The notes: generated by a model not told the origin, from the letters alone. 64,000 nt of DNA from Myxococcales bacterium (GCA_049841135.1 JASGHK010000008.1:339272-403271), one strand, 5' to 3'. Positions 15,563 through 26,401 are shown, counted from the stretch's first letter. Numbers and translations: made by a program.

Positions 15563-15597
15563 AAAAATGCAACGGCCCACCCCGAGCGGGGCGGGCC
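15563..15597 (-). terminator. intrinsic-terminator-like hairpin downstream of ctaD2
   Basis: Minus-strand RNA reads ggcccgccccg ctc ggggtgggcc followed by gttgcaTTTTT. A GC-rich 11-bp stem (one G-U pair) with a T-run lies about 120 nt after the ctaD2 stop and ahead of sco. Confidence 0.35.
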
Positions 15598-15720
15598 GCA
15601 TTGAACGGATGCCAGTCGCTGATCATCCGCCGAGCAACTGAGATTCCATCGTCTCCTCAGCCCGCGCAGGCGGGCTTCGCAACGTCAGGCGCGGCTTCAG
15701 CCGCCGGCACGCGGGCCGCG

Positions 15721-17367
15721 CTACGCCGCCTTGGCCTCCGGCGTCGCCGCGAGCGCGGCCCCGAAGTCGTACGGGCCGTGCTCGACCACCGGGGCCTCTA
15801 CGAAGTTCGCGGCCAGCGGAGGAGAAGGCGCGCGCCACTCGAGGCTCGCGCCACCCCAGGGATTGGCGGCGGCCTTGCTCCCGCTGCGCAGCGACTGGAC
15901 GAAGACGCCCAGCACCACCAGCACCCCCAGCCCGAGGATCCACGTCCCCACGGTCGAGAAGCCCTGCAGGAAGCGCAGGCCCTCCTCGTACGCGTAGTGG
16001 CGGCGGGGCATCCCGCGGCTGCCCAGCACGAACTGGACGAAGAAGGTCGCGTTGATGCCGAGCATCAGCAGGCCCCAGCCCAGGCGCCCCAGGCTCTCGG
16101 AGGTCGTCCGTCCGGTGATCTTCGGCCACCAGTGGTGCAGCCCCGCCAGGAACGCCATCGCGGTGCCGCCGACGACCAGGTAGTGCAGGTGCGCGACCTC
16201 GAAGTAGCTGGAGGACAGGTAGGCGCCCTGCGCGAGCATCGCCAGGAACAGGCCGGCGAGCCCGGCGATGGTGAAGAGCGCGACGAAGCCCAGCGCATAG
16301 AGCATCGGGACGGTCAGCGCGATGGAGCCGCGCCACAGCGTCGCCAGCCAGCTGAGCACCAGCACGAACATGGGGACGATCGCCAGCAGGCCGAGCACGC
16401 TGAAGAGGGCCGAGGAGTGCGGGCTCTGCCCCGCCACCACCAGGTGCTGTCCCCAGGCCACCAGGCCCAGCCCCGCGGTGCCGAACGTCGCGGCGACGAT
16501 GGGCCAGTAGCCGAAGCTGCGCCGGGCGTGCACGGCGATCACCTCGCTCACCACGCCCACGCCCGGCAGGAGCGCCAGGTAGACCGCGTTGTGCGCGTAG
16601 AACCAGAAGAGCTGCTGGTAGACGAGCGGGCTGCCGCCCTTGGCCACGTCGAACTGGCCCAGCCCGAAGGCGCGGTCGGCCAGCAGCACCAGCATCGCCG
16701 AGCCCAGCGCCGGGGTGGCGACGAGGTGCAAGAGGCTCGTCGCGTAGAGCGCCCAGAGCGTCATCGGCAGCTTGTGCCAGGAGAGGCCCGGGGCGCGCAT
16801 CCGGTGGATGGTGCCCAGGAAGTTGAGCCCGGTGAGCGCGCCGGAGAAGCCCATCACGAAGACGCCCAGCGCCACCGCCGGCACCGGCCCCTCCGCCGTC
16901 GTCGACCGCGGCGGCGCCAGCATCCACCCGGTGTCCAGGCCGCCGCTCGCGAAGGAGGAGAGCGCGATCAGCGCGCCCGCCCAGTAGAGGTAGAGGCTCG
17001 CCCGGTTCAGGCGCGGGTAGGCGACGCCCTTGGCGCCCACCATCAGCGGGACGAGGAAGTTGCCCAGCACCGCGGGGATGGCGGGCACGACGAAGGCGAA
17101 GCCCATGACCACGCCGTGGAGCGTCAGCAGGCGCAGCCAGGTCGCGGGGTCGATGAGCGCCTCGCCCGGCCAGAGCATCTTCAACCGCACCAGGCCCGCC
17201 AGCGTGCCGCCGAGCGCGAAGATGACCAGCACGCTCGCCAGGTACATCAGCGCGATCCGCTTGTGGTCGGTCGTGAGGAGCCAGGACGAGGGGCCGCGCC
17301 CCGCGTCGAGATAGCTGGGGGCAGGCTCTTTCGCCGATGTCTGGCTTGCGGAGGTGGACTCGGCCAT
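15721..17367 (-). CDS. ctaD: cytochrome c oxidase subunit I paralogue, divergent (ACIII-linked copy)
   Basis: 548-aa C-terminal part of ORF 15721..18285 starting MAESTSASQ; a cat triplet was confirmed at 17365-67. It aligns colinearly with the canonical copy. It reads WGQHLVVAGQSP where the canonical copy has [12 protein letters not shown], and GAYLSSSYFEVAHLHY where the canonical copy has [16 protein letters not shown]. Confidence 0.85.
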   Translation of the reverse strand: MAESTSASQTSAKEPAPSYLDAGRGPSSWLLTTDHKRIALMYLASVLVIFALGGTLAGLVRLKMLWPGEALIDPATWLRLLTLHGVVMGFAFVVPAIPAVLGNFLVPLMVGAKGVAYPRLNRASLYLYWAGALIALSSFASGGLDTGWMLAPPRSTTAEGPVPAVALGVFVMGFSGALTGLNFLGTIHRMRAPGLSWHKLPMTLWALYATSLLHLVATPALGSAMLVLLADRAFGLGQFDVAKGGSPLVYQQLFWFYAHNAVYLALLPGVGVVSEVIAVHARRSFGYWPIVAATFGTAGLGLVAWGQHLVVAGQSPHSSALFSVLGLLAIVPMFVLVLSWLATLWRGSIALTVPMLYALGFVALFTIAGLAGLFLAMLAQGAYLSSSYFEVAHLHYLVVGGTAMAFLAGLHHWWPKITGRTTSESLGRLGWGLLMLGINATFFVQFVLGSRGMPRRHYAYEEGLRFLQGFSTVGTWILGLGVLVVLGVFVQSLRSGSKAAANPWGGASLEWRAPSPPLAANFVEAPVVEHGPYDFGAALAATPEAKAA

Positions 17368-25700: not shown

Positions 25701-25754
25701 GCAGCCACAGCCGGCCTTCGCGCCGACCGTGATGGGAAACGTGGGATCGCTCAT
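22698..25754 (-). CDS. actB: alternative complex III subunit ActB (molybdopterin-oxidoreductase-like domain fused to 4Fe-4S ferredoxin domain), Tat motif
   Basis: 1018-aa part of ORF 22698..26639 from [31 protein letters not shown] is a twin-arginine motif. Multiple CxxC/CxxxC ferredoxin clusters sit in the C-terminal third. The ATG at 25754 overlaps the actA stop (ATGA). Confidence 0.85.
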
Positions 25755-26401
25755 CGGTGGCACCCCGAGCAGTGCAACGGCGGCTGGACCTCGCGGCCGG
25801 TCGGCGCCACCGCCCTGGGCGGCGACTGGGCCGGCTGCTTCCAGGCCATGTTGGTGATCTCGCTCGCCGGCCGCAGGCTCTTGCCCGGGTCGCGGTGACA
25901 GTCCAGGCACCAGCTCATCGACAGCGGCTCGCGCTGGATGACCTTGGGCATCTGGTCCACGCGGCCGTGGCAGCTCGAGCAGCCGACGCCCGCCGCCAGG
26001 TGCGCCCCGTGGTTGAAGTAGACGTAGTCCGGCAGCTTGTGCACGCGCACCCAGGGGATGGGCGTGTCGTTCGCGAAGCTCTCGCGGACCGGCAACAGCT
26101 TGGCGCTGTCGAGGCGGACCTTGGTGTGGCAGTTCATGCAGACCTGCGTCGGCGGGACCGCCGCCATGTTCGCCCGCTCCACCGAGTAGTGGCAGTAGCG
26201 GCAGTCCATGCCCAGGTCGCCGGCGTGCAGCTTGTGGCTGTACTCCACCGGCTGGTCGGGTTGGTAGCCGACCTCGAGGTGCTTGTTGGTCCCGTAGTAC
26301 CAGAGGGCCAGCACGACGGCCGTCGCCGCCGGCCCGAGGCCGAAGAAGAAGATCCACTTCAGGGCCTGATTGGACCAGCGGGGAAAGAAGTAGCGTGGCA
26401 T
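25751..26401 (-). CDS. actA: alternative complex III subunit ActA (pentahaem cytochrome c, membrane anchored)
   Basis: 216 aa with an N-terminal TM helix. Five CxxCH motifs: CRYCH, CMNCH, CSSCH, CLDCH, CSGCH. Confidence 0.85.
   Translation of the reverse strand: MPRYFFPRWSNQALKWIFFFGLGPAATAVVLALWYYGTNKHLEVGYQPDQPVEYSHKLHAGDLGMDCRYCHYSVERANMAAVPPTQVCMNCHTKVRLDSAKLLPVRESFANDTPIPWVRVHKLPDYVYFNHGAHLAAGVGCSSCHGRVDQMPKVIQREPLSMSWCLDCHRDPGKSLRPASEITNMAWKQPAQSPPRAVAPTGREVQPPLHCSGCHR

Follow-up and report, generated by a model that had tools for sequence, protein, structure and literature searches.

A duplicated caa3 oxidase core lacking proton-channel residues and a CuB ligand adjoins the Alternative Complex III operon of a Myxococcales bacterium

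The DNA under study is a window of 64,000 nucleotides (nt) from an uncultured Myxococcales bacterium (GCA_049841135.1 JASGHK010000008.1:339272-403271; G+C approximately 70%), and all coordinates below are positions in this window unless another locus is named. Between 10.8 and 26.4 kb the window carries an unbroken array of respiratory genes, all on the minus strand, which comprises the Alternative Complex III (ACIII) genes actABCDEF, a small gene with a single transmembrane (TM) helix, a second pair of oxidase genes (coxB2 and ctaD2), a spacer, and the sco-coxB-ctaD-coxC-coxD set of a caa3 oxidase (Table 1). Evaluating the residues, distribution and selection of these genes, we favor, with moderate confidence, the interpretation that CoxB2/CtaD2 is a selected, redox-active and non-pumping duplicate of the local caa3 core that is docked on ACIII.

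Domain identities were taken from Pfam, with NCBIfam models TIGR02891 and TIGR02866 used additionally for the oxidase subunits. Motif counts and Pfam matches identify the ACIII genes by a pentahaem ActA and a monohaem ActE, by an ActB that combines a molybdopterin-like domain, a 4Fe-4S domain and a Tat motif, and by the gene order A-B-C-D-E-F with ActD and two NrfD-like membrane subunits (ActC and ActF). ActF itself had no Pfam match, keeps its place in the gene order and its conservation across more than 60 loci, and resembles ActC in one of the further loci that we examined (L085). The downstream oxidase set is complete by Pfam, as the initial annotation of this DNA had stated, and by its residues the coxB1/ctaD1 pair within it is an ordinary canonical A2-type caa3 pair: the ctaD1 motif string HNDNSSWYSHPYHHMFSKTDHHRR holds all six His ligands, the His-Tyr pair, the K-channel Lys, the D-channel Asp and the YS motif. 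An ACIII cluster adjoining a caa3 oxidase cluster has already been documented (PMC5928083), is by now textbook-level, and adds nothing alone.

The second pair is a different matter, being divergent from the first (63% identity between ctaD2 and ctaD1, 58% between coxB2 and coxB1) and without subunit III or IV genes of its own, both as initially annotated. Using the residue numbers established for R. sphaeroides, we found the D-channel Asp132 replaced by Gly in ctaD2 (GAKDVAF to GAKGVAY), the A2-type Tyr-Ser motif altered from YSHP (YSHPAVY) to YAHN (YAHNAVY) with the Ser becoming Ala, and the CuB ligand His333 replaced by Gln (WGHHMF to WGQHLV). The K-channel segment with Thr359 and Lys362 has changed from PSGVKVFNW to PMFVLVLSW, the Lys becoming Leu, and the Mg site, formed by H411, D412 and subunit II Glu254, has changed from LTDTYF to LSSSYF. 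Mutants of A-type oxidases at D132 and K362 are nearly inactive or uncoupled. All of these ctaD2 changes are common to its orthologues P0002 and P0003, and in the CuA loop of CoxB2 the canonical CTEFCGTGHSAM has become CTGTCGVKHAAQ, with the Glu that serves as Mg ligand and backbone CuA ligand replaced by Gly and the axial Met by Gln, in the window and in both orthologous loci (L001 and L082) alike. What is kept is equally consistent: all three CtaD2 orthologues possess the haem a ligands (H102, H421), the haem a3 ligand (H419), His284, Tyr288, His334 and the Arg pair, while CoxB2 possesses both CuA Cys, both CuA His and the cytochrome c CxxCH. Measured against the features of A-family oxygen reductases, ctaD2 therefore has the haem a and haem a3 ligands and the cross-link Tyr288, and lacks the full set of three CuB His, Lys362, Asp132 and the A2 Tyr-Ser motif.

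These replacements are exceptional among related proteins. D132, H333 and K362 are kept in 206 of the 210 closest subunit I homologues, and Gly, Gln and Leu at these positions occur only in the window protein and its two orthologues (P0001-P0003) and in a more distant singleton (P0008). More broadly, 39 of 172 near-invariant columns are altered in all three ctaD2 orthologues, mostly to an identical new residue. Scores against the equivalog models follow the same division, with ctaD2 at 519.1 bits against a TIGR02891 (CtaD) cut-off of 670.75, which ctaD1 passes at 688, and coxB2 at 145.8 bits against a TIGR02866 cut-off of 147.7, which coxB1 passes at 187. Because ctaD2 falls below the CtaD equivalog cut-off, its NCBI name is the generic 'cbb3-type cytochrome c oxidase subunit I' (P0001), a misnomer for an A2-derived protein.

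Seeing so many altered positions, we assessed the pair for signatures of selection and decay. Nonsynonymous to synonymous rate ratios (dN/dS, by Nei-Gojobori among three assemblies, at dS of approximately 0.4-0.5) were 0.19-0.23 for ctaD2 and 0.28-0.35 for coxB2, as compared with 0.15 for ctaD1, 0.34 for coxB1 and 0.15-0.28 for the act genes (window versus L001), and dN was 0.073 for the duplicate versus 0.039 for the canonical copy. Both open reading frames (ORFs) are intact in the three independent assemblies, and the ribosome-binding site and overlap architecture are conserved among them. To judge from these ratios, coxB2-ctaD2 is under purifying selection and is not decaying. The weakest of the alternative explanations, a recent functionless duplicate on its way to becoming a pseudogene, could draw on the many replaced residues that are otherwise invariant, on the rarity of the clade, on its somewhat faster evolution and on a frameshift just upstream in this assembly (see below), yet we consider it the least probable of all, given intact ORFs at this dS, ratios no higher than those of coxB1 or the act genes, identical new residues at the replaced positions in all orthologues, a conserved Shine-Dalgarno and overlap architecture, and a set of changes that recurs elsewhere.

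To place the pair among related genomes, we ran tblastn with the window proteins on 80 genome loci, each from a species representative and picked for its similarity to ctaD2. The layout actF-(small gene)-sco-coxB-ctaD(-coxC-coxD) was seen in 61 of these loci, from Sorangium, Polyangiaceae, Haliangiales, Zixibacteria, Phycisphaerae and other Planctomycetota, whereas seven had no ACIII upstream, 11 lay on contigs too short to tell the layout, and a single one, a metagenome-assembled genome 88% identical in ctaD2 (L001), possessed the extra coxB2-ctaD2 pair. A third occurrence was found in Logan contigs (L082-L084; ctaD2 82% identical), and in one of these, L082, the pair follows actD-E-F and the small gene, with unrelated genes and no sco-caa3 set downstream. 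Only three close ctaD2 orthologues were found among 5.8 billion proteins searched; a further protein search with P0008 gave no new relatives, and JGI metagenome contigs, when scanned, gave 80 loci, every one of the canonical HH type, which confirms the rarity of the variant. Judged by this distribution, ACIII followed by sco-caa3 is the ancestral and common layout, with the canonical caa3 as the usual ACIII partner given the 61 loci, and coxB2-ctaD2 is a lineage-specific duplicate inserted between the small gene and the spacer.

The source of the duplicate can be read from two further comparisons. The identity of ctaD2 to canonical sequences (63% to ctaD1, 60% to P0006, 53% to Sorangium and 46-50% to other phyla) tracks the gradient of ctaD1 itself, and of the 20-22 rare states that are specific to the local canonical clade, 9-10 are present in ctaD2 and P0008 versus 0-4 in the other proteins that share the WGQH motif; together, gradient and rare states argue that the pair arose by duplication of the local caa3 genes. 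Two other histories were considered and set aside. Recent gene conversion between ctaD1 and ctaD2, as a cause of their 63% identity, finds no support in a sliding-window codon comparison, which showed no near-identical stretch, and the idea that ctaD2 arose long ago among the other WGQH proteins is contradicted by its 9-10 of approximately 21 local-clade rare states versus 0-4 in those proteins.

The pair is also tied to ACIII through the way its genes abut. Stop/start overlaps of the ATGA type were confirmed at actA/B, actB/C, actD/E, actE/F and actF/small gene, together with the 14-nt overlap of actC and actD, all as the initial annotation had listed them, while the overlap of the small gene with coxB2, listed there as another ATGA, is in fact GTGA, so that coxB2 starts with GTG at 18356. 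Between coxB2 and ctaD2 there is no overlap, and a 53-nt gap holds an AGGAG Shine-Dalgarno before the ctaD2 ATG at 17367. Within the small gene, the frame opened at the actF ATGA (ATG 18857) terminates at 18414, and the GTGA-ending frame (18353-18574) is a different one, in which the conserved C-terminal part of the small protein (RARERVLAEW...) runs on, in the +1 frame, to 18353. Alignment with both orthologous loci revealed an extra T at 18551 (minus-strand context CTCGAA-T-CGCGCC), without which the gene would encode the conserved ...RIPLERARERVLAEW... protein as in L001 and L082, where the intact proteins are 163 amino acids (aa; L001, 8535-9026) and 147 aa (L082, 2682-3125). The frameshift may be genuine, or the extra T may have arisen in assembly. 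In L001 the chain runs A/B -4, B/C -4, C/D -14, D/E -4, E/F -4, F/small -4 (ATGA) and small/coxB2 -4 (GTGA), and it is also intact in L082 by its gene calls. The proposal that ACIII and coxB2/ctaD2 form one translationally coupled unit thus stands for the chain up to coxB2 in the two orthologous loci and breaks in the window at 18551. Overlaps of this kind are in any case nothing special to ACIII, since the canonical operon also has a four-base overlap (ctaD1/coxC, ATGA), which makes them an operon habit of this genome.

The small gene belongs to a conserved family whose members follow actF and precede the oxidase genes in Myxococcota, Zixibacteria and Phycisphaerae, and is possibly the equivalent of ActG. 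It gave no match in Pfam or NCBIfam, and a search of PDB at E<=10 gave only low-complexity matches. Homologues were seen in the window and in L001, L082, L010, L014, L016, L022, L040, L085, L087, L088 and L091, sharing an N-terminal TM helix and the motif LRxLRAxE...YxWvD...vRIPi(D/E)RAmEL, followed by a variable Pro/Ala-rich tail. The tail reaches an extreme in Sorangium cellulosum So0157-2 (L010, approximately 7120-8150), whose homologue has a very long tandem (PADAK)n tail and approximately 345 aa in total.

The spacer of approximately 255 nt between ctaD2 and sco holds a hairpin and a conserved sco leader. The hairpin, which had been put forward as a terminator-like separation of the ACIII unit from sco-caa3, is real: its stem has 12 pairs, of which 10 are G-C, the tail TGCATTTTTG comes directly after it, and it is the strongest terminator-like site in the 10-27.5 kb interval, although the count of such sites in that interval, 7 found versus 6.8 expected, is not above chance. 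Its counterpart in L001, a G+C-rich hairpin at the equivalent position, has no T-run. Just 5' of the sco start, the window and L001 share a conserved segment, which fits a separate leader. A consensus scan found no sigma-70-like promoter before sco or coxB2, which is weak evidence in a myxobacterium of 70% G+C. The longest sco ORF (ATG 15601) crosses the hairpin, and the start conserved with L001 is ATG 15463, preceded by a GGGAGG Shine-Dalgarno; the start of coxB1 is probably ATG 14583, 1 nt past the sco stop, with GTG 14628 as an alternative.

We then looked beyond the local clade with a profile of four variant proteins, searched against 1.84 billion cluster representatives. Besides canonical oxidases, this search returned many very divergent proteins (35-47% identical) that possess WGQH(L/M) in place of WGHH, that have lost Asp132, and in which Lys362 has become Leu, Ile, Val, Ala, His or Gln. 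Such representatives are rare, forming singleton or two-member 90% clusters under generic names only. Genomic context, retrieved for seven further WGQH lineages, revealed that four (P0363, P0215, P0231 and P0213) directly follow actA-F and a homologue of the small gene, without sco and with variable COX3/COX4-like genes, and that three (P0008, P0216 and P0218) have no full ACIII visibly adjoining them, such that five of the eight WGQH lineages with known context are ACIII-attached. The CoxB partners in these eight lineages always keep the cytochrome c CxxCH, while their CuA site is intact in three, modified in two (the clade of the window and L081) and lost in three (L085, L088 and L090).

Several of these loci deserve description in their own right. 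No WGQH locus has an adjacent sco copper-chaperone gene. CoxB partners that lack both CuA Cys (e.g., SAEFSGAETSKM) and keep the fused cytochrome c are encoded at 8953-9981 of L085/L086, 8889-9986 of L088 and 9066-9998 of L090. In L090 (7728-13312) the WGQH subunit I is preceded by an ActF-like gene alone, actA-E being absent, and is followed by a dihaem cytochrome c; this group of genes may be what is left of an originally larger ACIII-oxidase cluster. P0008, to which the ctaD2 clade is most closely related, lies at L081 (5492-8091) in a stand-alone coxB-ctaD pair with no ACIII nearby, from which it follows that ACIII attachment is not obligatory for such proteins; in the CoxB of this pair the second CuA His is Tyr.

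The WGQH lineages differ in their nearest canonical relatives, and they possess few of the rare states of the local clade, so that the change set probably arose at least twice. ctaD2 shows every trait of a provisional class of WGQH, channel-less, A-like haem-copper oxidoreductases (Gln at the H333 position, loss of D132 and K362, a CoxB with cytochrome c, and no adjacent sco), and we regard this class as a set of shared traits that is probably polyphyletic, given that ctaD2 derives from the local canonical clade, rather than as a proven family. Going one step further, we suggest only tentatively, and with some doubt, that coxB2/ctaD2 is an instance of a repeatedly evolved and undescribed class that derives from the A family, whose members are dedicated ACIII partners and perform chemistry other than proton-pumping O2 reduction. 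If this were true, the chemistry could be, for example, a periplasm-protonated reduction of O2 or nitric oxide (NO), or a copper-sparing disposal of electrons. A full-text search of the literature found no description of the Gln-for-His variant or of an ACIII-linked degenerate oxidase.

To summarize the biology that these observations suggest, the region would be the main aerobic respiratory locus of its host, built on an ancestral arrangement of actABCDEF, the small single-TM gene, the spacer and sco-coxB-ctaD-coxC-coxD (an A2-type caa3) that is common to many Myxococcota, Planctomycetota and others. In a narrow lineage, a copy of the local coxB-ctaD would have come to sit behind the last gene of the ACIII operon, where the GTG start overlapping the small-gene stop would let coxB2 be produced together with ACIII, and the duplication would have been followed by a burst of change at invariant positions and then by purifying selection. 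The two-subunit CoxB2/CtaD2 module would dock on ACIII as caa3 does in R. marinus, with electrons passing from ActE to the cytochrome c domain of CoxB2 itself. CtaD2 would comprise a low-spin haem site and a high-spin haem a3 site with His-Gln-His and the Tyr, and CoxB2 a CuA that is probably altered. Since no canonical residue for cytoplasmic proton uptake is left, chemistry at haem a3/His-Gln-His would need protons from the periplasmic side, as in the NO reductases, and would not pump. Both cNOR and qNOR lack cytoplasmic proton channels. ACIII would thereby have, alongside the energy-conserving caa3, an outlet for electrons that is coupled weakly or not at all, and candidate substrates of the module include O2 and NO. 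That the same losses recur in independently derived lineages, often attached to ACIII, speaks for a function under selection and against mere accident.

Several observations weigh against this interpretation. With three close orthologues only, conservation is gauged over a short evolutionary distance, and the independent origins of the WGQH change set, which we consider probable, rest on similarity gradients and shared rare states rather than on a maximum-likelihood tree; a neighbor-joining tree clusters the long branches instead, and we do not trust it. If the frameshift at 18551 is real, translation of coxB2 would be uncoupled from ACIII in this genome. B-family oxidases also lack canonical D132 and K362, and an O2-reductase activity of CtaD2 through an unrecognized proton route is possible given that the haem ligands, the His-Tyr pair and two CuB His remain. 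Other members of the WGQH class (P0213, P0215, P0225, P0231 and P0243), moreover, no longer have the axial His of haem a3 or else lack the Tyr, which points to a non-catalytic role as a scaffold or tethered cytochrome.

That last observation leads to the main rival explanation, a purely structural or tethered-cytochrome role in which CtaD2 is a catalytically dead membrane scaffold and CoxB2 a tethered cytochrome c, serving as an electron relay or assembly factor beside ACIII. The losses at haem a3 are joined here by the loss of CuA in three lineages, by a CoxB cytochrome c CxxCH that is the only cofactor site always kept across the class, and by the ACIII attachment of most lineages with known context. 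Three points nonetheless make this role unlikely for the pair in the window, while leaving it a serious contender: the clade of the window conserves every haem ligand along with H284, H334 and Y288; nearly all members of the class have Gln at the H333 position, suggesting continued use of the site; and a 548-aa, 12-helix protein maintained at a dN/dS of approximately 0.2 as a mere anchor is possible but costly.

The opposite explanation is the one offered in the initial annotation, in which a fully functional, specialized oxidase isoform would be hard-wired with ACIII into a supercomplex and would borrow the downstream subunits III and IV. The overlap chain to ACIII in the orthologues, the retained haem ligands, His-Tyr pair, CuA Cys and cytochrome c domain, and the purifying selection on the pair are all in its favor, as is the existence of ACIII-caa3 supercomplexes in R. 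marinus and F. johnsoniae (PMC5928083). We nevertheless regard it as improbable. A working catalytic pair is difficult to reconcile with the replacement of the D-channel Asp, the K-channel Lys, the A2 Ser, the Mg site and one of three CuB His, in positions that are invariant in 206 of 206 canonical homologues, or with scores below the NCBI equivalog cut-offs; borrowing of downstream subunits cannot be required where, as in L082, unrelated genes rather than coxC and coxD follow the pair; and the notion of a dedicated ACIII partner runs up against the 61 of 80 related genomes in which ACIII is found with the canonical oxidase only, an arrangement that the initial annotation had itself named as refuting its proposal.

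A third explanation, that the pair is an NO reductase (or another N-oxide reductase) evolved from an A-family oxidase in parallel to the B-family-derived eNOR, sNOR and gNOR, takes its appeal from the channel loss, which resembles cNOR and qNOR, from the replaced active-site His, which resembles gNOR, and from the recurrent oxidase-to-NO-reductase transitions that are known (PMC11214002). We rate it highly improbable, given that the cross-link Tyr, which NO reductases lack, is kept, that the new residue is Gln rather than Asp, that no added FeB-type Glu ligand set was identified, that the larger ORFs of the 64-kb window include no nir, nor or nos genes, and that the new NO reductase families described so far derive from the B or C family and not from A2 (PMC11214002).

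Table 1. Coordinates of the respiratory gene array in the window.
Feature	Coordinates	Strand	Evidence and remarks
actA, pentahaem cytochrome c subunit of ACIII	25751-26401	-	Pfam Cytochrome_C7/c3; 5 CXXCH; ATGA overlap with actB
actB, Fe-S/molybdopterin-like subunit, Tat signal	22698-25754	-	Pfam Fer4 families and Molydop_binding; SRRGFL; ATGA overlap with actC
actC, NrfD-type membrane subunit	21262-22701	-	Pfam NrfD 1e-21; 14-nt overlap with actD
actD	20664-21275	-	Pfam PF11821 ActD 1e-61; ATGA overlap with actE
actE, monohaem cytochrome c, lipoprotein-type signal	20050-20667	-	Pfam Cytochrome_CBB3; 1 CXXCH; ATGA overlap with actF
actF, second large ACIII membrane subunit	18854-20053	-	Conserved position in all ACIII loci examined; ATGA overlap with small gene
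Small single-TM gene, seventh position (position of ActG)	18353-18857	-	Frameshifted in this assembly, extra T at 18551
coxB2, duplicated caa3 subunit II (cupredoxin and fused cytochrome c), altered CuA loop	17421-18356	-	Pfam COX2 and Cytochrom_C
ctaD2, duplicated A2-type subunit I (protein P0001)	15721-17367	-	Pfam COX1 2e-108
G+C-rich hairpin and TGCATTTTTG, candidate terminator of the ACIII-coxB2-ctaD2 unit	15572-15599	-	Top-scoring site of terminator-like scan
Conserved leader of the sco-caa3 operon (candidate promoter/5' untranslated region), GGGAGG Shine-Dalgarno	15464-15571	-	Spacer block best conserved between window and L001
sco, copper chaperone	14585-15463	-	Pfam SCO1-SenC; CPMLC motif (CxxxC); start codon conserved with L001
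coxB1, canonical caa3 subunit II	13645-14583	-	Pfam COX2_TM, COX2, Cytochrom_C; CuA loop CTEFCGTGHSAM intact
ctaD1, canonical A2-type subunit I	11950-13632	-	Pfam COX1 2e-152; all canonical residues present
coxC, subunit III	11291-11953	-	Pfam COX3; ATG 11953 overlaps ctaD1 stop as ATGA
coxD, subunit IV	10790-11224	-	Pfam COX4_pro

Elsewhere in the window, we noted a stop-free frame of 767 codons on the minus strand (58222-60522) in which a complete GAPDH is directly followed by a complete phosphoglycerate kinase, an apparent in-frame fusion or a lost stop codon. Two typical large myxobacterial genes on the plus strand, encoding a 1142-aa Ser/Thr kinase fused to a STAND NTPase (43297-46725) and a 1515-aa protein with DUF4215 repeats (48116-52663), are unrelated to the oxidase finding.

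Returning to the favored interpretation of a selected, non-pumping duplicate, the locus would represent a natural experiment in which an A-type oxidase core was duplicated, became fused to its electron donor's operon, and lost both proton pathways and a CuB His while under selection. It would offer a defined partner for studying the electron output of ACIII and a test of which oxidase features serve which activity, and an A-family case with Gln, occurring in several lineages independently, would add to the range of active sites known for these enzymes. There is also a warning here for metagenomic annotation, in that such genes are counted as cytochrome c oxidases or called 'cbb3-type' and may distort oxidase counts.

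Among known systems, the closest parallel is the ACIII-caa3 supercomplex of Rhodothermus marinus (Sousa et al. 2018, PMC5928083), where actABCDEF and a seventh single-TM gene are likewise followed by caa3 genes whose subunit II carries a cytochrome c, and where ActE is the proposed direct donor to that cytochrome c domain. In contrast to R. marinus, the window holds two oxidase modules, of which the one fused to the ACIII operon is a two-gene duplicate without proton channels and a CuB ligand, while the canonical caa3 sits behind a spacer with a sco gene of its own. The ACIII-aa3 supercomplex of Flavobacterium johnsoniae (cited in PMC5928083; PMC8552683), in which ACIII is coupled, physically and in function, to an A-family oxidase with no soluble carrier, would be a similar case; it differs in an extra cytochrome c domain on ActA, a normal aa3 and no degenerate paralogue. 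The best PDB match, the Thermus thermophilus caa3 (2YEV), shares with the duplicate pair the fold, the haem a and a3 ligands, the His-Tyr pair, and the CuA Cys and fused cytochrome c of subunit II, whereas, compared with A2 caa3 oxidases of this type, ctaD2 has YAHN in place of YSHP, has exchanged the D-channel Asp for Gly, the K-channel Lys for Leu and one CuB His for Gln, and has no Mg-site residues, and in coxB2 the CuA Met has become Gln and the CuA/Mg Glu has become Gly.

Finally, gNOR and cNOR/qNOR (Murali et al. 2024, PMC11214002) are likewise haem-copper members that came from oxygen reductases and lost their cytoplasmic proton pathways, and in gNOR, the first superfamily member with a replaced active-site His according to that 2024 survey (PMC11214002), one active-site His is replaced as well. 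They differ in originating from the B or C family, in lacking the Tyr, and in possessing Asp in gNOR, whose cupredoxin subunit has no CuA, or three His and a Glu around FeB in cNOR/qNOR. Of the features of cNOR/qNOR, ctaD2 shares only the absence of channels, keeping the Tyr with two His and a Gln, and it departs from gNOR in its A2 derivation (63% to ctaD1), in Gln rather than Asp at the replaced position, and in a CoxB2 that keeps its CuA Cys.

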